Shown: positions 22,100 through 32,412, counted from the stretch's first letter. The stretch is DNA of 64,000 nt from an uncultured bacterium (GCA_965233195.1 CBDDSB010000025.1:86484-150483), one strand, 5' to 3'. Notes: a model not told the origin generated them from the letters alone. A program made the numbers and translations.

Positions 22100-23498
22100 G
22101 ATCGGCCGGGCGTGCCGCGTCGCCGGTGCGCTCGAGCCAGCCGCCGCCGAGCGCGCGGTAGAGGTCGACGAGGTTCGTGAGCCGTTGCATGCGCGCGGTG
22201 ACCAGCGCGAGCTGGGCGTTGTAGAGGCCGGTCTGCGCGGTGAGCACCTGCAGGTAGTTCTCGATGCCGTTGCGGTAGCGGAACAGCGAGAGCTCGAGGC
22301 TGCGCTGCTGGGTCGCGGTGAAGCGCTCCTGCGCGGCGACCTGGTCATCGAAGGTGCCGCGCCCGGCGAGGCCGTCGGCCACTTCGCGGAACGCGGTCTG
22401 GATCGCCTTCTCGTACTGTGCGATGCCCACGTCCTTGCGCAGGGTGGCAAGATCCAGGTTCGCGCGCAGGGCGCCACCCTGGAAGATCGGCAGCGTGATC
22501 GCCGGCATGAACGCCCAGGCGAGCGAGCCTGCGCCGAACAGCCCGGAGAGCGATGCGCTCGCCGTGCCGACGCTGCCCGTGAGGCTGATGCTCGGGAAGA
22601 ACGCGGCGCGCGCGGCGCCGATGTTGGCGTTCTCGGCGCGCAGCAGTGCTTCGGCCTGCAGAATGTCCGGGCGGCGGGCGAGGAGGTCCGACGGCAGCCC
22701 GGCCGGAACGTCGGCGAGGATCGGCTGGTCGTTCAGCCGGACCGCGGGCGGCAGGTCCGCGGGCAGCGGCTGGCCGAGCAGCAGCACGAGCGCGTTTTCC
22801 GCTTGTGCGCGAAACCGCAGTTGGGCGGCGAGGTTAGCGTTGGCCTGCTCGAGCACCGATTGCGACTGTTGCAGGCTGAGCTCGGGCGCGGTGCCGGTGT
22901 CGAACTGGAGCCGCACGATCTTGTACGACTCCTGCGCGGTGGCGAGTGTCTCGCGCGTCACCGCGAGCTGCTCGTCGAACGCGAGCATCGCCAGGTACTG
23001 GTCGGCGACCTGTGAGACGAGCAGGATCTCGGCGGCCTGCCTCGCGTACCCGGTGGCGAAGTACTGCTGGAGCGCGGCGTCGCTCAGGCTCTGCACGCGG
23101 CCGAAGAAGTCGAGTTCCCAGGCGGCGGCAATGCCGGCTTCATACTGACGGGTCGTTGTTCCGGCGCTGCGCGATTGCGCGGCGTCGGCGAAGGCACCCA
23201 CGCGGGGAGCGAGCCCCGCGCGCTGGATGCGGTACTGGGCCTGCGCCTCGCGCACGTTGAGCGCCGCGATGCGCAGGTCGCGGTTGTTCTCGAGCGCGAT
23301 CTCGACCAGGCGCTGCAGCCGCGCATCTCGCATGAAGTCGCGCCAGCCGATGTCCGCCGCGGGCGGCGAATTCAGGTTGCCGCGGTCGTTGTACGGGAAA
23401 TCGCCGGCGATGGGCGCGGCCGGCCGCTGGTAGTCCGGCGCCATGCTCGAGCAGGCGGCCAGCAAAAGGATGCCGAGACTAGACGCGAGCTTTTTCAC
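22089..23498 (-). CDS. RND efflux outer-membrane lipoprotein (OprM/NodT family)
   Basis: Lipobox LAAC; ALENNRDLR, WELDFFGR, RRPDI, LYRALGGGW. Confidence 0.93.
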   Translation of the reverse strand: MKKLASSLGILLLAACSSMAPDYQRPAAPIAGDFPYNDRGNLNSPPAADIGWRDFMRDARLQRLVEIALENNRDLRIAALNVREAQAQYRIQRAGLAPRVGAFADAAQSRSAGTTTRQYEAGIAAAWELDFFGRVQSLSDAALQQYFATGYARQAAEILLVSQVADQYLAMLAFDEQLAVTRETLATAQESYKIVRLQFDTGTAPELSLQQSQSVLEQANANLAAQLRFRAQAENALVLLLGQPLPADLPPAVRLNDQPILADVPAGLPSDLLARRPDILQAEALLRAENANIGAARAAFFPSISLTGSVGTASASLSGLFGAGSLAWAFMPAITLPIFQGGALRANLDLATLRKDVGIAQYEKAIQTAFREVADGLAGRGTFDDQVAAQERFTATQQRSLELSLFRYRNGIENYLQVLTAQTGLYNAQLALVTARMQRLTNLVDLYRALGGGWLERTGDAARPADPSL

Positions 23499-26400
23499 GA
23501 GTCAGCCTGCGGCTCACCACGACGTAGAACATCGGGATCAAGAAGACGGCTAGGAAGGTGGCGGTCAGCATGCCGCCGAGCACGCCGATGCCGATTGCAT
23601 GCTGGCTGTTGGAGCCCGCGCCCTTCGCGAGGGCGAGCGGCAGAACGCCCAGTCCGAAGGCGAGCGAGGTCATGATGATCGGCCGCAGCCTCTGCTGCGC
23701 GGCCTCGAGCGCCGCTTCGACCACCGGGCGCCCCTGCGCTTGCAGGTCGCGGGCGAACTCGACGATCAGGATCGCGTTCTTCGACGCCAGGCCGATGGTC
23801 ACCAGCAGTCCGACCTGGAAGTAGACGTCGTTCGGCATGCCGAAGGCGCTCACCGCGGCGAGCGCGCCCAGCACCCCGAGCGGCACCCCGAGTATGACGG
23901 AGATCGGGATCGACCAGCTCTCGTAAAGCGCCGCCAGGCACAGGAACACGACCAACACGGATAGCAGATAGAAGTAGGGCGCCTGGTTGCCCGCCTGGAT
24001 CTGCTGCAGCGAGATCCCGGTCCATTCGTAGCCGATGCCCGCGGGCAGCTGGTGCGCGAGGCGCTCCATCGCCGCCATTGCCTGTCCGATGCTCTTTCCC
24101 GGCGGCGCCACGCCCTGGAACTGGGCGGAGGACACGCCGTTGTAGCGCTCGAGCCTGGGTGAACCGTACTGCCACGAGCCCCTCGCAAGCGAGGAGAAAG
24201 GAACCAGGGTGCCCTGCGCGTTGCGCACGTAGATGGTCTTCATGTCCTCCGGATTCATGCGGAAAGGGGCGTCGGCCTGCGCGTACACCCGCTTGATGCG
24301 GTTGTCGCTGTCCAGGTAGTTGTTGATGAAGCGCGAGCCCCACAGGATCGAGAACGACTGGTCGATGTCGGACAGCGCGACGCCGAGCACGCTCGCCTTC
24401 TCGCGGTCGATGTCGATCTTGTAGGTGGGGTTGTCCTCGAGGCCGTTCGCCCTGACCTGCGCGAGGTCCGGGTCTTGGCGCGCCATGGCGAGCAGCTGGC
24501 TGCGCGCCTGCATCAGCGCCTCATGACCGACGCCGCCGATGTCCTTCAGCTGGAAATCGAAGCCCGCGGCGCTGCCCAGGCCCTGGATCGGCGGCGGATT
24601 GACCGCCACAATGTTCGCGTCGTGATAGGAAGCGAAGCGCGCGTTCAGGCGCTCGACCACCCTCTGCGCCACGAGCTCGGGCGCGGTGCGCTCGCTCCAG
24701 TCCTTGAGCCGCACGAACACGTAGCCCTGGTTTTGCCCGCGTCCGGCCTGGTTGAATCCGTTCACCTGGAAATTCGCCTGGACCGCGGCTGCCTCATATC
24801 CCTCCAGGTAGGCGCTGATGTCGTCCAGGATGACCTGCGTGCGGGCGATGGTGGCGCCCGGCGGAGCTTGCACCTGCACGAAGAAAAAGCCCTGGTCCTC
24901 GTTCGGCACGAACGAGCTCGGCAGGCGCATGAACAGCAGGCCGACGGCGACGATGACCGCGGCATAGACCACGAACCAGCGCCCGGAGCGCGCGATGACC
25001 CGGCGTACGCCGCCCGCGTACCGGTCGCGACCGTAATCGAAGGCAGCGTTGAACCAGCGGGCGAACCGGTTCTTGCGGCCATGTGCGCTCCCCGGCTTGA
25101 GCAGCGTGGCGCAGAGCGCGGGGGTCAACGTAAGGGCGACGAACACCGAGAGCAGCATCGCGGCGACGATGGTCAGCGCGAACTGCCGGTAGATCGCCCC
25201 CACCGATCCGCTGGAGAACGACACCGGGATAAAGACCGCCGACAGCACCGCCGCGACGCCGATGAGCGCGCCGGTGATCTGTCCCATCGCCTTGCGCGTG
25301 GCCTCGCGCGCCGGCAGGCCTTCTTCGGTCATCACGCGCTCGACGTTTTCCACCACCACGATTGCGTCGTCGACCAGCAGGCCGATCGCCAGCACGATGC
25401 CGAACATGGACAGGGTGTTGATGGTGAAGCCGAGCGCCGCCATCACGCCGAAGGTGCCGAGCAGCACCACCGGGATGGTGATCGTGGGGATGATGGTGGC
25501 GCGCCAGTTCTGCAGGAACACGAACATCACCAGGAACACCAGCGCGATGCCCTCGAGGAGCGTCTCGACCACGCCGGCGATAGAGACCCGGATGAACGGT
25601 GTGGTGTCGTTCGGGTAGACGGCCTGCACGCCTGGCGGAAAGTACTTCGACAGCTCCTCGACCTTGGCGCGCACCGCGTTCGCCGTGGCGAGCGCGTTGG
25701 CGCCGGTGGCGAGCTGGATGAGCATGCCGCTCGCCGGCTGCCCGTTATACTTGTTGTCGACGGCGAAGGTCTCAGCGCCGCGTTCCACGCGCGCGACGTC
25801 GCGCAGCCTGACCTGCGAGCCGTCGGACAGGACTTTCAGCAGGATGGCGCCGAACTCCTCCGGCGTGCGCAGCAGCGTCGCCTCGGTGATGGCGGCGTTG
25901 AGCTGCTGGGTCGGCAGCGCCGGCGTGCCACCGAGCTGCCCGCCGGCGATCTGCACGTTCTGGGTCTGCACCGCCGCGGTGACGTCGAGCGGCGTCAGCG
26001 CGTAGCCAGTGAGTCTGGTCGGATCGAGCCAGATGCGCATCGCGTACTGCGTGCCGAAGACGTTGAAGGCGCCGACGCCGTCGATGCGGCTGATCGGGTC
26101 CTGCATGGTCGACACCATGTAGTTCGCGAGATCGAACTTCGACATGCGGCCGTCCGTCGAGACCAGGCCGATCGCCATCAGGAAGGAGCTCGACGACTTG
26201 GTGACGCGGATGCCGAGCTGCTGCACCTGCGCCGGAAGCAGCGGCAGAGCGAGCTGCAGCTTGTTCTGCACCTGGACCTGGGCGATGTCGGGGTTGGTTC
26301 CGGGTGCGAACGACAGGGTAATGCTCGCCTGCCCGGTGTTGTCGCTGGTAGAGGCGAGATAGATGAGGCGGTCGATACCACTCATCTGCTGCTCAATCAC

Positions 26401-26589
26401 CTGCACGACGGTGTTCTCCACCGTCTGCGCGGAGGCCCCGGGGTACGTGGCGTTGATCTGCACTGAGGGCGGCGCGATCGGCGGCACCTGCTCGACCGGC
26501 AGCCGGGCGATCGACAGGCCGCCCGCCAGCATGATGAGCAGCGCGATGACGATCGCGAAGATCGGGCGGTCGATGAAGAACTTGGCCAT
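23479..26589 (-). CDS. RND efflux transporter (AcrB/MexB family)
   Basis: MAKFFIDRPIFA, GLLVDDAIVVVENVER, KNAILIVEFA, RPIIMTSLAF. Confidence 0.95.
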   Translation of the reverse strand: MAKFFIDRPIFAIVIALLIMLAGGLSIARLPVEQVPPIAPPSVQINATYPGASAQTVENTVVQVIEQQMSGIDRLIYLASTSDNTGQASITLSFAPGTNPDIAQVQVQNKLQLALPLLPAQVQQLGIRVTKSSSSFLMAIGLVSTDGRMSKFDLANYMVSTMQDPISRIDGVGAFNVFGTQYAMRIWLDPTRLTGYALTPLDVTAAVQTQNVQIAGGQLGGTPALPTQQLNAAITEATLLRTPEEFGAILLKVLSDGSQVRLRDVARVERGAETFAVDNKYNGQPASGMLIQLATGANALATANAVRAKVEELSKYFPPGVQAVYPNDTTPFIRVSIAGVVETLLEGIALVFLVMFVFLQNWRATIIPTITIPVVLLGTFGVMAALGFTINTLSMFGIVLAIGLLVDDAIVVVENVERVMTEEGLPAREATRKAMGQITGALIGVAAVLSAVFIPVSFSSGSVGAIYRQFALTIVAAMLLSVFVALTLTPALCATLLKPGSAHGRKNRFARWFNAAFDYGRDRYAGGVRRVIARSGRWFVVYAAVIVAVGLLFMRLPSSFVPNEDQGFFFVQVQAPPGATIARTQVILDDISAYLEGYEAAAVQANFQVNGFNQAGRGQNQGYVFVRLKDWSERTAPELVAQRVVERLNARFASYHDANIVAVNPPPIQGLGSAAGFDFQLKDIGGVGHEALMQARSQLLAMARQDPDLAQVRANGLEDNPTYKIDIDREKASVLGVALSDIDQSFSILWGSRFINNYLDSDNRIKRVYAQADAPFRMNPEDMKTIYVRNAQGTLVPFSSLARGSWQYGSPRLERYNGVSSAQFQGVAPPGKSIGQAMAAMERLAHQLPAGIGYEWTGISLQQIQAGNQAPYFYLLSVLVVFLCLAALYESWSIPISVILGVPLGVLGALAAVSAFGMPNDVYFQVGLLVTIGLASKNAILIVEFARDLQAQGRPVVEAALEAAQQRLRPIIMTSLAFGLGVLPLALAKGAGSNSQHAIGIGVLGGMLTATFLAVFLIPMFYVVVSRRLTREKARV

Positions 26590-26591
26590 GG

Positions 26592-27701
26592 CTAGTTCGC
26601 GGCTGTTCTTTGCGGCGCTTCGATCGCCCGCACCTGGGCCCCCGGCTGTACCCGCTGCAGGCCGGCGACGATCACCCGCTCGCCGGCGGTGAGCCCGCCT
26701 TCCACCAACCACTGGTCGCCCAGCGTGCGCGTCGCCTTCAGTGCGCGCAGCGCGACCTTGTTGTCGGCGTCGATCACCAGCGCGGTGGCCTGCCCCTGGG
26801 GGTTGCGCGTTACCCCCTGCTGGGGGACGAGGATCGCCTCGGTCAGACCCTGCTCGATGCGCGCGCGCACGAACATGCCGGGCATTAGCACGTGGTCCGG
26901 ATTCGGAAACACCGCGCGCACCGTGATCGACCCGGTATTTGGGTCGACCGTGATGTCGGTGAAAGCGAGCTCGCCCGGCAGCGGATACTCGCTACCGTCT
27001 TCCAGCAGCAGCGTGACCTTTCCACCGCCCGCCTGGTCGCGCCGGAAGCGCAGCGCCTCGGCGCTCGACTGGCTCACGTCCACGTAGATCGGATCGATCT
27101 GCTGCACCGTGGCCATGAGCGTGGCGGCCCCCGCCTGCACGAAAGCCCCCGGGGTTACGAGCGACAGGCCGACGCGCCCGGCGATCGGCGACCCGACGTT
27201 CGTGTAGCCGAGGTTGATGCGTGCCTGCTGCACCGCCGCTCTCGCCGCGGCGAGGTCGGCACTCGCCTGGCCTTGCGTGGCCATCGCGTTGTCGAACTCC
27301 TGGCGGCTGACGCCGTTGCCCGGGAGAAGGATCTTGTAGCGCTCGGCGAGCGCATTGGCTGAGGCTAGCGCGGCGTGCATCTTCTGCTCCACCGCCATGG
27401 CGTTGTCGAGCGCGGCGCGCAACGGTGCCGGGTCGATCTGATACAGACGCTGCCCGGTCCGGACATCGCTGCCTTCCTGGAACTCGCGCCGCAGGACGAT
27501 GCCGTCGACGCGCGCGCGCACCTGGGCGACGAGATACGCGGAGGTGCGGCCCGGCAGCTCGCTCACCACCGGCACACTCTGCGGGCGGACCGTCACCACC
27601 GTCACTTCCGGTGGCCGAGGCGCTTGCGCAGCCTGTTGTGCCTCCACGCAGCCGCCAAGGACGATTGCGGCTACGGCGGACAAAGCAATCCTAATGGTCA
27701 C
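26592..27701 (-). CDS. RND periplasmic adaptor (AcrA/MexA family)
   Basis: Lipobox LGGC; ELPGRT, VRARVDG, SPIAGR, VDPNTG, PGMFVR; GTG start inferred. Confidence 0.92.
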   Translation of the reverse strand: MTIRIALSAVAAIVLGGCVEAQQAAQAPRPPEVTVVTVRPQSVPVVSELPGRTSAYLVAQVRARVDGIVLRREFQEGSDVRTGQRLYQIDPAPLRAALDNAMAVEQKMHAALASANALAERYKILLPGNGVSRQEFDNAMATQGQASADLAAARAAVQQARINLGYTNVGSPIAGRVGLSLVTPGAFVQAGAATLMATVQQIDPIYVDVSQSSAEALRFRRDQAGGGKVTLLLEDGSEYPLPGELAFTDITVDPNTGSITVRAVFPNPDHVLMPGMFVRARIEQGLTEAILVPQQGVTRNPQGQATALVIDADNKVALRALKATRTLGDQWLVEGGLTAGERVIVAGLQRVQPGAQVRAIEAPQRTAAN

Positions 27702-27876
27702 GAAGCAGCTCCTCTGTGGGGACGCGGACAGAATGCGCTGCCGGGCATTGCGCGAGCCTGTCAGCAATATGAGGAAAAGTTCAGGAAACCGACGATGAAC
27801 CCGGCGTAATGACCCGGCAAGGTCGGTGCAACGCGCAGTGGCGCATCGTTCGGGGCATCAACCTGAAAGGCACCCC

Positions 27877-28191
27877 ATGAAACGCTTGATTACTCGCAGT
27901 GCATTGTCCGCGGCCGCATTGTCAGCAGCTCTTGCCGGCGCAGGCGTCGCCTCTGGTAACGAGAGCACCACGCAAAACGTCGAAGACACGACGATCACCA
28001 CCCAGATCGAGACGGAGCTGCTCTCCGGTGAGGGCATCTGGTCCAGCGATATCATCCGCGTCGAGACCGTCCAGGGCATGGTGCACTTGCGCGGCTATGC
28101 GACTACTGAACGCGATCGACGGCGTGCCGGCCAGATCGCGGAATCGGTCGCGGGCGTAAAGGGCGTGGAGAACGATATTCGGATCCGCTAG
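27877..28191 (+). CDS. BON domain protein
   Basis: Signal peptide; DTTITTQI...VETVQGMVHLRG...VAGVKGVENDI. Confidence 0.85.
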   Translation: MKRLITRSALSAAALSAALAGAGVASGNESTTQNVEDTTITTQIETELLSGEGIWSSDIIRVETVQGMVHLRGYATTERDRRRAGQIAESVAGVKGVENDIRIR

Positions 28192-28413
28192 TTAATGCGG
28201 TGAGATTCAAGGACATGACCGGGAAGCAAATTCGTTCGCGTGCTCAAAGTCGGCGTCTGCGTGATCTCGTTCGGGATGATCTTCCAGAACATCCTGTACG
28301 ACTGAGCGCTGCCAATCAGACGCAGCGCGCATGACTCACACACGGCCCGAAACGGGAGCCGGGCTTGAGCGGTGGGCTTTGCCCGCGTCGAAGTACCGCG
28401 CTTCCATAGCGTC

Positions 28414-28761
28414 ATGAGTCAGCTCGGAGACCCCCGCGTCCTATTCGCCGCCGAGCGAACTCTAATGGCCTGGAGTCGCACAGCGACCGGACTAATGGCG
28501 TTTGGATTTTTCATAGACCGCACTGCGCTCCTGACAGCCCAAGTGGGCAAGAGTACGAGTACAGCGTTCTTGATCGGCACGGCGTTCGTGCTGCTCGGCG
28601 TGCTGCTTAGCGTACTTTCCATAGTGCAGTACGGTCGGTCCGTCGCTTCACTGCAGTCAATCGAGATACCGAACGGGTACTGGACAGCTCTCCCTGTGTA
28701 CGCAGGCGTCTCAATCGCATTACTCGGGCTGGCGCTGGCCTGGTATCTCGCAGCCGGATGA
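28414..28761 (+). CDS. DUF202/YidH inner-membrane protein
   Basis: DPRVLFAAERTLMAWSRT...FGF, three TM segments. Confidence 0.85.
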   Translation: MSQLGDPRVLFAAERTLMAWSRTATGLMAFGFFIDRTALLTAQVGKSTSTAFLIGTAFVLLGVLLSVLSIVQYGRSVASLQSIEIPNGYWTALPVYAGVSIALLGLALAWYLAAG

Positions 28762-29176
28762 CGGAGGGACGGTGATCCTGCGTTTGTGGTTGCCGTGTTG
28801 TTGACGGGGCTATCGGCGGAGGTATCACCTGCCTCTTCCCTAGCCGTTCCGCAGAGGCCGACTCTGAACACGGCGGTGACTGCACTTAGCCGGGCGTAGG
28901 CGGTCACAGTGCCGTTATCCAGCGCGAAGTTGCAAAAGGGATGCATCCAGGGCATCGGTAGGCACGGCGGCTATCGAACGGTCTTTGCTTCCTGCGTGCG
29001 CAATAGGACGTGAGCTCTGCTATGGCGACGGGAATCGATTTCCGGCTGCTACTGGACGTCCCTGAACGATATTTGGAACTGCCTCCAGCATTCGATACCC
29101 CCAGTGGTACTCCTTAGGCAGCGTCCCAACACCAGTGCTGACGACGATGTAACCGCCGTGTAGGATTCTCACCTCA

Positions 29177-29488
29177 GTGCTGCACCTTATCGCTCGGGCC
29201 TTCCTCGTCCTGACGCTGCTTGCCGGCTGGCAAGCGGCTCTCCAGCACCCGATCGAGCACGTCGATCACGCCGGCGACTTCGTCCACCTAGCCGGAGACA
29301 CGCATGGCCGTTCGGACAAGGCACCACTGTGCGACGCGCTCGATGCCTTGACCGCATGCATGTCGGGCGCGACGACGGTCGTCGCCGTCTCCTTTTCCGC
29401 ATACCTCGCAACCTCGAGCCACGTCCCCGCACCGCGCGTGGCCGCGGCGCCGCCGTACCTTTCGCAAGGCCCTCCGTCGTCGGTTTGA
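29177..29488 (+). CDS. DUF2946-like leader protein (putative ribosome-arrest peptide)
   Basis: Signal-like N-terminus, His-rich stretch, CDALDALTAC, Pro-rich tail ending PPYLSQGPPSSV; directly upstream of a metal-uptake operon. Confidence 0.65.
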   Translation: MLHLIARAFLVLTLLAGWQAALQHPIEHVDHAGDFVHLAGDTHGRSDKAPLCDALDALTACMSGATTVVAVSFSAYLATSSHVPAPRVAAAPPYLSQGPPSSV

Positions 29489-29530
29489 AGCAACGGTAGT
29501 TCCCAGAACCGAACTTCAGACGGAGGCTTT
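29466..29530 (+). promoter_or_regulatory. SD-sequestering mRNA hairpin
   Basis: cctccgtc (29471-29478, Pro-Pro codons) is the exact reverse complement of gacggagg (29519-29526), which contains the GGAGG SD of the 29533 gene. Confidence 0.6.
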
Positions 29531-29532
29531 CT

Positions 29533-30789
29533 ATGTTTCGCAGCATGGCTGTCGCCATGGCGTTCGCCGTGGCTTCGGTGCTTGCGCATGCGCAGACCAC
29601 CGAGCAGTACCAGCAGTTGCAGCGTCGTATCGACCGGCTTGAGGCGCAGACCAAGGCGCGCGGCCCGGCGGCATTCAACCCGGAGATTTCGCTCACCCTC
29701 CAGGGCACGGCGGCGAGCATCCAGCAGGACCCGGAGACCTACCGGATCACCGGGTTCGCACCCTCGGGCGGCGAGGTTGGCCCTCCGCGCCGCGGCTTGA
29801 GCCTCGCCGAGTCGGAGCTCGCCATTGGCGGGAACGTCGACCCGTACTTCCGCGGACAGCTGGTGGCGGCGCTAACGCCTGAAGACGAGATCGAGGTCGA
29901 GGAGGCGTTCTTCCAAACGCTGTCGCTCGGCCGCGGCTTCACGTTCAAGGGCGGCCGCTTCCTTTCGGGCATCGGCTACCTGAATCCGATCCACCAGCAC
30001 GCCTGGGATTTCCACGACGCGCCGTTTGCTTACAAGGCGTTCCTCGGCGGGCGCCTGAATGATGACGGCGTGCAGGCGAAGTGGGTGGCACCGGCGGACT
30101 TCCTGATCGAGCTGGGCGTCGAGGCGGGGCGCGGCCGGAGCTTCCCCGCCACGGACCCGAACCGCAACGCCGCCGGGGCCTGGAGCGCGTTCGCGCACGT
30201 CGGCGGCGACCTGTGGCGCGCGGGACTGTCCTACCTTCGCGTCAAACCGAACGATCGAGCGTTCGAAGATAGCGACGCGTTGGGCGGCGCAGCGACACAG
30301 TCCTTCACCGGAGAGAGCAAGCTGTGGATAGCGGACGTCGTTGTGAAATGGCGTGAGCTCAAGGTCCAGGCCGAGTACTTCCGGCGCAAGGAATCCGGCC
30401 AGCTCACGTTCGACGACAGCGGCGGGTCCGGCGTGTTCGGCTCGCTCACGGACGCCTATAGCAGCACGCAGTCCGGCTGGTACTTGCAGGCGGTCTATCG
30501 TTTCCTCCCGCATTGGCGCGGCGGCTATCGCTACGACCGGCTGGATCATGGCACCGTCTCGAACGGCATCGTTGAAAACGGCCTGGGACCGACCGCGGCC
30601 GATTTCCCACTGCTCGTGACCGACCACAATCCGACGCGCAACACACTGATGGTTGACTGGAGCCCCACGGAGTTCAGCCGGGTACGGCTGCAATATGCCG
30701 AAGACAAGGCCCGCTTCGGCGTGACCGACAACCAGGTCGTCCTGCAATACATCCTCAGCCTGGGAGCCCACGGTGCGCATCGTTTTTAG
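29533..30789 (+). CDS. Outer-membrane beta-barrel (metal-uptake porin-like)
   Basis: Signal peptide, FNPEISL, ESELAIGGNVDPYF, NPIHQHAWDF, TEFSRVRLQY, C-terminal LGAHGAHRF. Confidence 0.75.
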   Translation: MFRSMAVAMAFAVASVLAHAQTTEQYQQLQRRIDRLEAQTKARGPAAFNPEISLTLQGTAASIQQDPETYRITGFAPSGGEVGPPRRGLSLAESELAIGGNVDPYFRGQLVAALTPEDEIEVEEAFFQTLSLGRGFTFKGGRFLSGIGYLNPIHQHAWDFHDAPFAYKAFLGGRLNDDGVQAKWVAPADFLIELGVEAGRGRSFPATDPNRNAAGAWSAFAHVGGDLWRAGLSYLRVKPNDRAFEDSDALGGAATQSFTGESKLWIADVVVKWRELKVQAEYFRRKESGQLTFDDSGGSGVFGSLTDAYSSTQSGWYLQAVYRFLPHWRGGYRYDRLDHGTVSNGIVENGLGPTAADFPLLVTDHNPTRNTLMVDWSPTEFSRVRLQYAEDKARFGVTDNQVVLQYILSLGAHGAHRF

Positions 30790-31666
30790 CCTTTTCCTTA
30801 TAGGGGCGGCGGCGCCTGCCCTGGCCGCCCTGAATATCTTCGCCTGCACGCCGGAATGGGGCGCGCTCGCGAAGGAGCTGGGCGGCGACAAAGCCGCCGT
30901 CTACACGGCGGCGAGCGCGCTGCAGGATGCCCATCGCATCGAAGCACGCCCGAGCCTGATCGCCCGGGCGCGCAGCGCCGATCTGATGGTCTGCACCGGC
31001 GCGGAGTTGGAGGCGGGATGGCTGCCGCTGGTGCAGTCGCAATCGGGAAACGCCAGGATCCAGGCGGGACAGCCGGGTTATGTGGAGGCCGCGGATTTTG
31101 TCGCGCTGATCGAGCAGCCCGCACGACTGGACCGCTCGCTCGGCGACATCCACGCCGCGGGCAATCCGCATATCCACCTCGATCCGCGCAACATCGCCGA
31201 GGTCGCGGCTGGGCTCGGCGAGCGCTTGGCGGAGATCGATCGCGCGAACGCTGGATTTTTCAAGGCGCGAACCAAGGCGTTCCTTGAGCGTTGGCGTGAG
31301 GCGACCGTGCGGTGGGAAAAGGAGGGCGCGCCGCTGAAGGGACTTCCCGTAGTCGTCCACCATCGCAACCTCTCTTACCTCGTCGCCTGGCTTGGCATGC
31401 GGGAAGTGGGCGCACTCGAGCCGAAGCCAGGCATCCCGCCGAGCACCGCATCGCTCACCGAGCTCCTGGCGAAGCTCAAGCAGGCGCCCCCCAAAGCTGT
31501 GCTGCGCGCGGCTTACGAGGACCCGCGGCCGAGCGAGTGGCTGTCGCTGCGCGCGGGCATTCCGGCGGTCGTGCTGCCCTTTACGGTCGGCGGCAACGAC
31601 AGGGCCAAGGACCTGTTCGCCCTCTACGACGACACACTGGCCCGGCTACTGGCGATAACCCGATGA
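30773..31666 (+). CDS. Metal (Zn/Mn-type) ABC substrate-binding protein
   Basis: QDAHRIEARPS, GAELEAGW, GDIHAAGNPHIHLDP, VVHH, EPKPGIPP. Confidence 0.88.
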   Translation: MRIVFSLFLIGAAAPALAALNIFACTPEWGALAKELGGDKAAVYTAASALQDAHRIEARPSLIARARSADLMVCTGAELEAGWLPLVQSQSGNARIQAGQPGYVEAADFVALIEQPARLDRSLGDIHAAGNPHIHLDPRNIAEVAAGLGERLAEIDRANAGFFKARTKAFLERWREATVRWEKEGAPLKGLPVVVHHRNLSYLVAWLGMREVGALEPKPGIPPSTASLTELLAKLKQAPPKAVLRAAYEDPRPSEWLSLRAGIPAVVLPFTVGGNDRAKDLFALYDDTLARLLAITR

Positions 31667-32412
31667 CGGAGAACCTTCTGCTGTTCTGGCCGGCGCTGGC
31701 GGCGGGCCTGCTGGTCGCCGCCACGCACGCGCCGCTCGGCGTACAGGTCCTCAACCGCGGCATCGTGTTCATCGACCTGGCGGTGGCGCAGATCGCCGGG
31801 CTCGGCGTGGTGCTTGCCGATTCGCTCGGCCTCGAGCACCACGGACCGGCCGTGCAAGTCTCTGCGCTCGGAGCGGCCCTGGCCGGCGCACTACTGCTGC
31901 AATGGACGGAAAAGCGGTGGCCGGAGGTGCAGGAGGCCGTGATCGGCGTGATCTTCATCCTCGCCGCAAACGCTGCCATCCTGCTTCTCGCCGCGAGCCC
32001 GCACGGTGCGGAGCATCTGAAAGACCTGCTGGCGGGGCAGATCCTCTGGGTGCGAGTCGATGCGCTGCCCGGTGTGGCGCTGGCAACGGCGGCGATTCTC
32101 GCTGCGTGGTTCTTGTTCCGCGGGCGCTTCTTTTACCTGCTATTTGCTTGCGCCGTTACGGTTTCCGTGCAGTTGGTGGGCATCTATCTCGTGTTTGCGA
32201 CGCTCATCGTGCCGGCGCTTGCCACGCGAAGGATGCGTCGCGGCCGAATCATCGTTTGCTACCTGGTATGCGCACTGGGGTACACAACCGGCTTGGCGCT
32301 CTCAACAATCACCGATCTCCCAGCTGGCCCCCTGATTGTGTGCACGATGACAGCACTAGGAATTGTTGTGTTCGGGGCATCCCTTCCGACATCCGGGCGA
32401 GCGTCCACGTAG
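31663..32412 (+). CDS. Metal ABC transporter permease (ZnuB/MntB-like)
   Basis: ATGA overlap; LGVQVLNRGIVFIDLAVAQIAG, GIYLVFATLIVPA, DLPAGP. Confidence 0.85.
   Translation: MTENLLLFWPALAAGLLVAATHAPLGVQVLNRGIVFIDLAVAQIAGLGVVLADSLGLEHHGPAVQVSALGAALAGALLLQWTEKRWPEVQEAVIGVIFILAANAAILLLAASPHGAEHLKDLLAGQILWVRVDALPGVALATAAILAAWFLFRGRFFYLLFACAVTVSVQLVGIYLVFATLIVPALATRRMRRGRIIVCYLVCALGYTTGLALSTITDLPAGPLIVCTMTALGIVVFGASLPTSGRAST

Follow-up and report, generated by a model that had tools for sequence, protein, structure and literature searches.

A candidate proline-proline leader at a porin-ZnuA-ZnuB module of an uncultured bacterium, with a Shine-Dalgarno sequence predicted to be masked by the leader's last codons

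In a 64,000-nucleotide (nt) stretch of DNA from an uncultured bacterium (GCA_965233195.1 CBDDSB010000025.1:86484-150483; hereafter the window), a 103-codon open reading frame (ORF) lies directly upstream of genes for an outer-membrane porin, a ZnuA-type periplasmic metal-binding protein and an ABC-3 (ZnuB-type) permease. The last codons of this ORF are complementary to the porin gene's Shine-Dalgarno (SD) sequence, and in the folding models removing or covering the ORF tail lifts the masking of that SD. Judged by its conservation, the ORF is a real gene of a small, narrow family, and it is probably a CutF-like translational leader on a zinc-uptake module. The fuller proposal, that it is a cis-acting regulatory leader of the CutF/CruR type that gates translation of the coupled porin-ZnuA-ZnuB module, with zinc suggested as the metal, is a reading in silico to which we give about an even chance.

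The leader and the porin Shine-Dalgarno sequence

Features of the leader and of its junction with the porin gene are as follows.

29163-29166, + strand: AGGA, a possible Shine-Dalgarno sequence of the leader, 10 nt ahead of the GTG (sequence reading)
29177-29488, + strand: leader ORF, GTG start, 103 codons plus TGA (29486-29488; sequence reading)
29180-29242, + strand: hydrophobic helix at the N-terminus, codons 2-22, a putative signal peptide or signal anchor (AlphaFold2 run on the family alignment)
29246-29287, + strand: His motif H24-P-I-E-H28-V-D...G33...H37, with three His invariant in the alignment
29330-29359, + strand: C52-D-x7-C61, both Cys invariant, on predicted helix 48-60 (alignment and AlphaFold2)
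29450-29455, + strand: P92-P93 (CCG CCG), the first proline-proline (PP) motif, in PRVAEAPPF, with ordinary codon usage (alignment)
29465-29476, + strand: Q97-G98-P99-P100 (CAA GGC CCT CCG), the proposed pause site (sequence and alignment)
29471-29478, + strand: outer 5' arm (anti-SD) CCTCCGTC, beginning at the Pro99 codon (inverted-repeat search and minimum-energy fold)
29481-29486, + strand: inner 5' arm TCGGTT, the last sense codons and first stop base (minimum-energy fold)
29507-29512, + strand: inner 3' arm AACCGA (sequence and minimum-energy fold)
29519-29526, + strand: outer 3' arm GACGGAGG, holding the SD GGAGG (29522-29526), 6 nt ahead of the porin ATG

A preliminary description of the region had noted a 103-residue ORF with a signal-like N-terminus, a His cluster and a C-x8-C pair, and all of these are present. 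The N-terminus is hydrophobic (MLHLIARAFLVLTLLAGW), with a hydrophobic stretch following Arg7; the His residues stand in H24-P-I-E-H28-V-D-H31 and then at H37 and H43; and the protein ends in PRVAAAPPYLSQGPPSSV. The QGPP motif, which had been called terminal, is there but lies three residues ahead of the stop codon (Q97-G-P99-P100-S-S-V-stop).

The proposed match between the Pro-Pro codons and the porin SD is exact: in the inverted-repeat search the outer arms CCTCCGTC/GACGGAGG are 8 nt long, 100% complementary and 40 nt apart, and 44 nt separate the leader stop from the porin ATG (29533). Folding of 29455-29540, which the preliminary description had proposed as a check, places the outer helix in the minimum-energy structure (-25.4 kcal/mol) together with TCGGTT/AACCGA; of the two additional pairings once suggested, this one forms, and tgaag/cttca is unused in that structure. 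Against dinucleotide shuffles the hairpin scores z = -1.75, with 9 of 200 shuffles equally stable; on the window sequence alone it is only mildly unusual, and its support comes from related loci. The modelled cost of opening the SD in the window is 13.2 kcal/mol for the native sequence, 6.9 kcal/mol with the ORF tail synonymously recoded and 3.2 kcal/mol without it; when a ribosome is modelled, the cost is 9.6 kcal/mol on free mRNA and 3.7 kcal/mol with the ribosome stalled. An intrinsic terminator in the leader-porin spacer was considered and rejected, as no T-run follows the hairpins.

Predicted SD masking in related loci

Altogether 85 related loci were examined, and 80 of them hold 95 leader copies. 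From the loci retrieved, 68 distinct leader ends were extracted; three of them run into a contig end, and the 65 that have a downstream start yield 60 distinct junction sequences. The minimum-energy fold joins at least four of the six SD-core bases to the leader tail at 57 of the 60 junctions; when the flanks are widened by 30 nt upstream and extended to include 15 nt of the following gene, such pairing is found at 44 of 61. The mean cost of opening the SD core at the 60 junctions is 10.2 kcal/mol for native sequences, 6.2 kcal/mol after synonymous recoding of the tail and 3.5 kcal/mol after its removal; the native cost exceeds the recoded mean in 57 of 60, and in 24 of 60 no more than 5% of the recodings reach it. 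With modelled ribosome footprints in the wider context (n=61), mean costs are 8.1 kcal/mol for free mRNA, 4.3 kcal/mol with Pro99 in the P site and 5.0 kcal/mol with a terminating ribosome. Masking of the ORF end lowers the cost by 3.55 kcal/mol at leader junctions (n=53) versus 0.11 kcal/mol at other junctions of the same loci (n=77). Genes directly behind leaders have unusually strong SDs, and the leader-to-gene spacers measure 31-69 nt.

Pairing between ORF end and SD recurs with different sequences. In the window's subgroup it consists of CCTCC(C)GNN with an inner TCGGTTTGA/CAAACCGA helix; a second solution uses GTCCTCT/AGAGGAC or CTTCTCTGA/TCAGAGGAG around a G+C-rich inner hairpin, and a third uses CCTCCGCCTGA/CAGAGGAGG. 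Every subgroup has its 5' arm in the stretch from the last PP codons to the stop codon. On this comparison the leader-SD RNA is conserved in principle, not in shape. The PP motif as a mere by-product of anti-SD coding was also considered and rejected, since the motif persists even in cases with CCG CCC as its codons and an anti-SD formed by the last codons instead.

Covariation of the hairpin, another of the checks proposed beforehand, was found in the larger subgroup and did not rise above shuffles in the window's own. For the larger subgroup, a covariance model gave an alignment, fitted to the structure, of 42 matches (37 distinct); 84.0% of the cells are paired, compared with 78.5% after shuffling and 30-55% in slid controls, and two-sided changes occur in 19 of 27 pairs, against 10.5 in shuffles, with none of 500 shuffles attaining the observed level. 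The window's subgroup (17 distinct sequences including window positions 29465-29535) has 84.5% of its cells paired, and its inner helix has a standard pair in 96.4%.

The leader family

A word-indexed search returned 155 homologous proteins at E<=0.01 among 171 candidates, nearly all of 100-115 amino acids (aa) and all unnamed, and a profile search of 1.84 billion representative proteins placed only 82 representatives in the family at E<=1e-3. The family is absent from Pfam. The leader is present in eight of 41 related genomes, including the window's own, all within one genus-level group, and in five of 401 genomes sampled across the order, of which two matches are weak and look spurious; records with names among the homologues are Burkholderiales or Betaproteobacteria metagenome-assembled genomes (soil).

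In a 41-sequence alignment the invariant residues are W18, Q19, H24, P25, H28, G33, H37, C52, C61, R87, P93, Q97, G98 and P100. The C-terminal block APRVAEAPPFLSQGPP, which includes the QGPP motif, is nearly invariant, with the consensus tail APRVAEAPPFLSQGPPASV, and residues 62-85 vary freely. AlphaFold2 with the family alignment predicts helix 2-22 with a predicted local distance difference test (pLDDT) score of 93-96; the remainder scores 48-67.

The end of the protein is the most regular part. Among the 187 family members having the terminal motif, 173 read [SA]Q[GA]PP, 159 have exactly three residues after the last PP, and 146 have C-x8-C. All 146 of the latter have their first Cys either 47 residues (72 members) or 48 (74 members) ahead of the last PP's first Pro, whereas the distance from His to PP varies from 62 to 88. 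The residue two ahead of the last PP is Gln in 173 members, Arg in 10 and His in four; in the window it is Gln97. CxxC occurs only in eight remote members. The most remote members, found by profile search, have CxxC (CDLCVAF), a canonical PRAPP and a terminal SQAPP; their PRAPP lies seven residues upstream of the terminal PP, at the place of PRVAEAPP in the window.

Codon choice at the last PP is distinctive. The first Pro of QGPP is encoded by the rare codon CCT in 43 of 65 distinct loci, and the second by CCC in 47 of 65, against a background in the downstream genes of 50 CCT (5.7%) and 177 CCC among 878 Pro codons. The upstream PP has CCG as its first Pro codon in 57 of 61 loci and CCT in one of 61.

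Proposed mechanism

On free mRNA, the leader's last codons and stop (CCTCCGTC, TCGGTT) would pair with the region of the porin SD; a ribosome at the leader end would cover the 5' arm and free the SD, and its dwell time there would set the frequency of porin initiation. Because the porin, ZnuA and ABC-3 genes overlap, gating the porin start could gate all three. At the likeliest position the P site would hold Pro99 and the A site Pro100, a slow Pro-Pro step. With Pro99 in the P site, a footprint extending about 15 nt downstream would cover 29471-29485, and thereby both 5' arms, while the porin SD, 36 nt past the edge of the stalled footprint, would leave room for a second ribosome.

The anchor, His24/His28/His37 and Cys52/Cys61 are proposed to sense the metal co-translationally and so to alter the dwell time, the Cys pair being held 47-48 residues from the pause site. 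The ribosome tunnel holds roughly 30-40 residues, and on that assumption C52, which would be 47 residues from the catalytic centre during the pause, would be just out of the tunnel. The His cluster would be 62-75 residues away, and across the membrane if the anchor inserts N-in. We infer pausing at QGPP, metal binding, which metal is concerned and in which direction the response runs. The logic of CruR would be more sensible for an uptake system, with arrest in the absence of metal keeping the module on and metal releasing the arrest to turn it off; the sequence is compatible with either sign. Given Gln in place of Arg, a weaker pause sensitive to elongation factor P (EF-P) is more likely than a block of the RAPP type, so that any pause at QGPP would more likely be an ordinary Pro-Pro pause, like that at the PPP of CutF.

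A more elaborate version, a zinc-sensing nascent-chain switch that does without the canonical Arg, is unlikely. In such a switch a zinc-folded His3Cys2 site would pull the chain and release the pause, the hairpin would re-form and the module would be turned off. The anchor would sit in the membrane with His24/28/37 exposed, and the Cys52-Cys61 helix would lie at the tunnel exit or translocon, 38-47 residues away from the peptidyl-transferase centre. It would be a natural counterpart of the force-sensor experiments reportedly made in the laboratory with zinc fingers and SecM.

Comparison with known leaders and arrest peptides

CutF of Rhodobacter capsulatus (cutFOG), which has been called a DUF2946 member, resembles the window leader in being a small protein, exported in the case of CutF and presumably so in that of the leader, with a metal motif and a C-terminal Pro motif, and in being followed by a short spacer whose stem-loop shields the next SD and is proposed to be melted by a stalled ribosome. 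CutF is reported to melt the stem-loop by stalling at the Pro motif (PMC9973294; 10.1101/2025.02.05.636593), and the pause at its PPP is reported to be EF-P-sensitive (10.1101/2025.02.05.636593). CutF differs in having CxxxC and PPP, in responding to copper and in switching on a detoxifying oxidase, whereas the window leader has His3 and C-x8-C, QGPP, an uptake module (porin, ZnuA and ZnuB) and zinc-type surroundings. The filters described for CutF-like proteins are a length below 150 aa, PP in the last 15 residues and a same-strand neighbour within less than 1000 nt (PMC9973294); the window ORF has all three properties, and in silico its hairpin, like a CutF-type stem-loop, shields the SD within reach of a stalled ribosome.

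CruR of Bordetella pertussis (Bp2923), the prototype of DUF2946 (PF11162), shares with the leader an N-terminal export signal or anchor (a putative one in the leader), a poorly structured product (as reported for CruR in PMC9426467), an xxPP motif three residues from the stop at a fixed distance from Cys, and an outer-membrane importer downstream. The Cys-PP spacing comprises 45 intervening residues in CruR and 47 or 48 residues from first Cys to first Pro in the leader family. CruR is distinguished by CXXC, RAPP, a 162-nt spacer, Rho-dependent termination and a response to copper (PMC9426467), and the leader by the absence of a PF11162 match at E<=1, the lack of CXXC and Gln in place of Arg. 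Of the hallmarks of DUF2946, CXXC and RAPP are absent from the window leader and the conserved Cys-PP spacing is present. The preliminary description had ascribed an SD hairpin to both CutF and CruR; a stem-loop is reported for CutF (PMC9973294), but the account of CruR describes a Rho-dependent mechanism (PMC9426467).

The RAPP/RGPP arrest peptides (ApdA, ApdP and ApcA, with RAGP in SecM) are likewise small, mostly exported proteins with xxPP near the C-terminus, encoded ahead of a regulated gene; unlike the leader they have an essential Arg, and their arrest resists EF-P. The Arg of RAPP/RGPP is reported to be essential in ApdA, ApdP, SecM and CruR: AAPP/AGPP variants are arrest-defective, and CruR, which arrests with both Pro codons in the P and A sites, needs Arg139 and loses arrest when it is replaced (R139A; PMC12992588). 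As QGPP lacks the Arg, arrest there is a presumption. A 2025 survey describes upstream ORFs with RAPP/RGPP ahead of metal-homeostasis genes (PMC12992588); a search for that motif would miss the leader family, because of its Gln. Among the loci examined here, one protein above the DUF2946 cut-off (L116:1492-1875, - strand) ends in SQGPPFSV, Arg-less like the leader family, and another, in locus L113, ends in PRGPPLIS.

A further parallel is ZrgD (DUF2607/PF10795) of the zrg operon of Vibrionaceae. In the members extracted (Vibrionaceae loci L120-L138), ZrgD combines a single hydrophobic helix at the N-terminus with a His-rich motif that leads into a Cys (HHxHHxC) and with R[AS]PP; in 11 of the 13 sequences analysed, three to five residues separate the R[AS]PP from the stop. 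The gene stands directly upstream of a signal-peptide gene, presumed from its N-terminus to be zrgA (an unverified assignment), and the codons after PP pair with the next SD region, with a modelled opening cost of 5.9 kcal/mol free versus 3.3 kcal/mol masked (n=13). As in related leader loci, the surrounding zinc system includes DUF3299 (ZrgE) and a MacB-type ABC pair (PMC9817125). ZrgD differs from the leader in belonging to another Pfam family, in keeping the Arg (RAPP/RSPP) and in having a single Cys. The available account presents it as a hypothetical single-helix protein of 101 aa with no growth phenotype upon knockout, and does not describe it as a leader (PMC9820375); on the present comparison it may be an arrest leader of the zrg zinc operon.

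Weighing of the interpretation

Several results weigh against a regulatory leader of the CutF/CruR type. The leader had been called DUF2946-like, a claim that the searches did not bear out: a hidden Markov model search of the window leader gave no Pfam or NCBIfam match at E<=1, so that it falls below the PF11162 gathering score of 23.7 bits, and hhalign of the family against 17 true DUF2946 proteins from genomes of the order gave a probability of 6.6% over nine C-terminal columns; against 11 DUF2607 sequences hhalign gave 1.3%, which is not significant. Gln97 occupies the position of the essential Arg, and Gln does so in 173 of 187 family members.

The RNA evidence also has its limits. The loci are interrelated and some are the same region from two collections, so that counts and p-values overstate independence. 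With wider flanks, modelled stalling lowers the opening cost by at least 3 kcal/mol at just 30 of 61 junctions, and the control junctions had start codons assigned automatically and have weak SDs. Because termination by any ribosome opens the helix too, simple coupling would account for the RNA data. In the window's subgroup the five pairs with two-sided changes were equalled by 67 of 500 shuffles, because the helices vary too little. RNAalifold, run on MAFFT alignments of the two junction subgroups, missed the SD helix owing to shifts in its register from one locus to the next, and a covariance model from subgroup B matched neither the window nor the junctions of subgroups A and C at E<=0.01. 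Codons for Pro, Ala, Leu and Ser, together with TGA, are inherently complementary to a purine-rich SD, and tests of the duplex alone are weak: own partners average -14.3 kcal/mol and foreign ones -12.4 kcal/mol, the own partner is best in four of 58, and recoding gives z = -0.83. Finally, no sigma-70-like promoter was found in 28300-29700, and a search of the window with the Zur-box consensus TGTTATNNNATAACA gave three matches with at most three mismatches versus 1.9 expected, none near the leader.

Homology of the leader family to DUF2946 is nevertheless plausible. Sub-threshold full-length matches to PF11162 occur in eight of the 37 family representatives scanned, the best being P0198 (23.4 bits, E 1.1e-4). 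The remote members align with DUF2946 at an hhalign probability of 69% over 32 N-terminal columns, a value that is not significant. In the window's own genome the best PF11162 score, 16.2 bits, is at another locus.

The main rival holds that the leader is a stable, membrane-anchored periplasmic His/Cys accessory protein that binds metal, such as a chaperone or tether for the porin or ZnuA, joined to the porin by plain translational coupling, with neither arrest nor nascent-chain sensing; the hairpin would serve only to tie porin translation to that of the leader. It accounts for the RNA data equally well, since in the model the SD is opened almost as readily by termination as by stalling (5.0 versus 4.3 kcal/mol). 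The absence of the Arg that is reported as essential in RAPP/RGPP (PMC12992588) suits it, as do the high conservation of the whole N-terminal half, the high-confidence anchor helix and the tandem paralogues in many loci; the conserved Pro-rich tail could bind protein. The geometry of the C-terminus argues the other way: the Cys-PP distance of 47/48 is fixed over a variable linker, which is hard to explain in a mostly disordered mature protein and matches the ruler of CruR, and PP is exactly three residues from the stop in 159 of 187 members. The enrichment of rare CCT at the last PP only, and the low model confidence beyond the anchor, which recalls what is reported for CruR, also speak against a stable accessory, an explanation that is possible but doubtful.

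If instead the complementarity were a compositional by-product of a tail rich in Pro, Ala, Ser and Leu near a strong SD, the hairpin would have no regulatory role. The single-sequence z of -1.75, the weak duplex-only tests and the non-significant covariation of the window's subgroup would fit such an origin, but at 57 of 60 junctions synonymous recodings mask the SD less well than the native tail does, control junctions of the same loci lack the effect, two-sided changes in the larger subgroup exceed all 500 shuffles and CCT is enriched at the last PP, and a by-product is very improbable. Translation and transcription polarity are generally linked in bacteria, and a pause at the leader end might act by shielding the mRNA from Rho, release leading to termination before the porin and the hairpin being secondary. 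CruR is reported to act in this manner for an outer-membrane importer (PMC9426467), and, as with CruR, a TonB-dependent-receptor-like gene follows one remote family member. Such polarity is improbable here, given spacers of 31-69 nt rather than the 162 nt of CruR, their G+C-rich and structured character, which would make them poor Rho loading sites, and the specificity of SD masking to leader junctions.

Downstream module and zinc context

The three genes behind the leader are as follows.

29533-30789, + strand: outer-membrane porin, 418 aa, with signal peptide, N-terminal coiled coil, beta-barrel and C-terminal Phe (AlphaFold2 and Foldseek)
30773-31666, + strand: ZnuA-type periplasmic metal-binding protein (PF01297, E 6e-36), its start overlapping the porin end by 17 nt
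31663-32412, + strand: ABC-3 (ZnuB-type) permease (PF00950, E 9.8e-21), its ATG overlapping the ZnuA stop as ATGA

The porin matches no Pfam family, Porin_O_P included, and a sequence search of the PDB with it returned nothing relevant; it has more than 7,700 homologues, unnamed. Its AlphaFold2 model (predicted template modelling score 0.70, mean pLDDT 69) has as its top Foldseek matches OprP (2o4v, E 1.7e-11, TM about 0.5), DcaP (6eus) and OprO (4rjx/4rjw), and its structural look-alikes in the Atlas bear porin names. The assignment as an OprO/OprP-like porin is a predicted similarity at the level of the fold.

For the ZnuA-type protein the zinc-specific NCBIfam models AztC and ZnuA score far below their cut-offs, and the metal is therefore deduced from the neighbours. 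No ATPase gene lies beside the ZnuA and ABC-3 genes, and a MacB-type query found nothing in the window; the genome was not searched for a ZnuC-type ATPase. An ATPase-less ZnuA/ABC-3 pair followed by hslV recurs in related loci. A comparable arrangement, an outer-membrane receptor with ZnuA2 and ZnuB2, is reported in Vibrio (PMC9817125).

Behind the 95 leader copies the next gene is a porin in 58, a Cys/His-rich periplasmic protein of 80-87 aa in 22, the contig end in 13 and another gene in two, one of these being TonB-dependent-receptor-like. Ahead of the leader lie DUF3299 (40), cobW/COG0523 (24), the small Cys/His protein (17), Fur-family (3) and ZIP (1) genes. By family, the neighbours in these loci include cobW with CobW_C, ZnuA, ABC-3, Zip, FUR and DUF3299 with a MacB-type ABC system. 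ZnuA, ZIP and COG0523 proteins are standard members of zinc regulons, and yciC and zigA are COG0523 genes. Both yciC and zigA are reported in Zur regulons (PMC6103462), DUF3299 is ZrgE of the Zur-regulated zrg zinc system and the MacB-type ABC pair is ZrgBC (PMC9817125). By its gene content the locus context points to zinc, not copper. The idea that the leader controls a non-copper uptake system is supported by the porin, ZnuA and ABC-3 permease in zinc-type clusters; of the metals once listed as candidates (Zn, Ni, Co and Mn), the context supports Zn and offers nothing for the other three.

Tandem leader paralogues occur in many loci (L017, L018, L020, L021, L043 and others; an example being L021:4396-5318), arranged as leader, small protein, second leader and porin, each leader having its own anti-SD/SD pairing. 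The small exported Cys/His-rich protein of 80-87 aa (AQSKHGSKEEQ...KYCGMKHQH) matches no Pfam or NCBIfam family. In L075:5001-7325 (and in L085) a 667-aa TonB-dependent-receptor-like gene takes the place of the porin behind a remote leader member whose end is SQAPPRLS, within the same cobW/ABC/DUF3299 cluster. In the window's own genome, contig C16 (L142, L145) carries cobW, the small Cys/His protein, DUF3299 and hslV without an intervening leader gene, and the leader-porin-znuAB module is separate from the rest of the zinc cluster. Upstream of the leader the window has an RND efflux pair on the minus strand (23479-26712 and 26592-27767, read from ORF translations), a BON-domain gene (27826-28191) and a DUF202 gene (28372-28761), followed by about 415 nt with no recognised gene.

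Significance

CutF, CruR and the RAPP/RGPP survey are reported to establish the principle of such leaders for copper and other metal-homeostasis genes (PMC9973294, PMC9426467, PMC12992588). No paper linking arrest leaders to zinc uptake was found in the literature searched, and zinc, ZnuA and porins are not mentioned in this connection in the available parts of these three papers. The main text of PMC9973294 lacks 'zinc', 'ZnuA' and 'ABC transporter', and two of its supplementary texts lack ZnuA, zinc and porin; its cluster lists (File S1, Fig. S6) might contain the leader family. What appears to be new here is the Arg-less QGPP tail, the combination of His3 with C-x8-C, the tandem copies and the porin/ZnuAB target.

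To our knowledge, metal-sensing arrest peptides have been shown experimentally for copper only (CruR and CutF), and bacterial zinc uptake has been explained almost entirely by the transcriptional repressor Zur. If the leader acts as proposed, nascent-chain metal sensing would reach zinc import, the rule of an essential Arg in arrest tails would not be general, and an internal checkpoint could break the coupling between the upstream genes of a long zinc operon and its outer-membrane and periplasmic part. A zinc-sensing nascent-chain switch, if real, would add a post-transcriptional layer beside Zur, shared in principle with ZrgD (DUF2607), and the ZrgD parallel offers a testable function for a 'hypothetical' protein of a well-studied zinc system.

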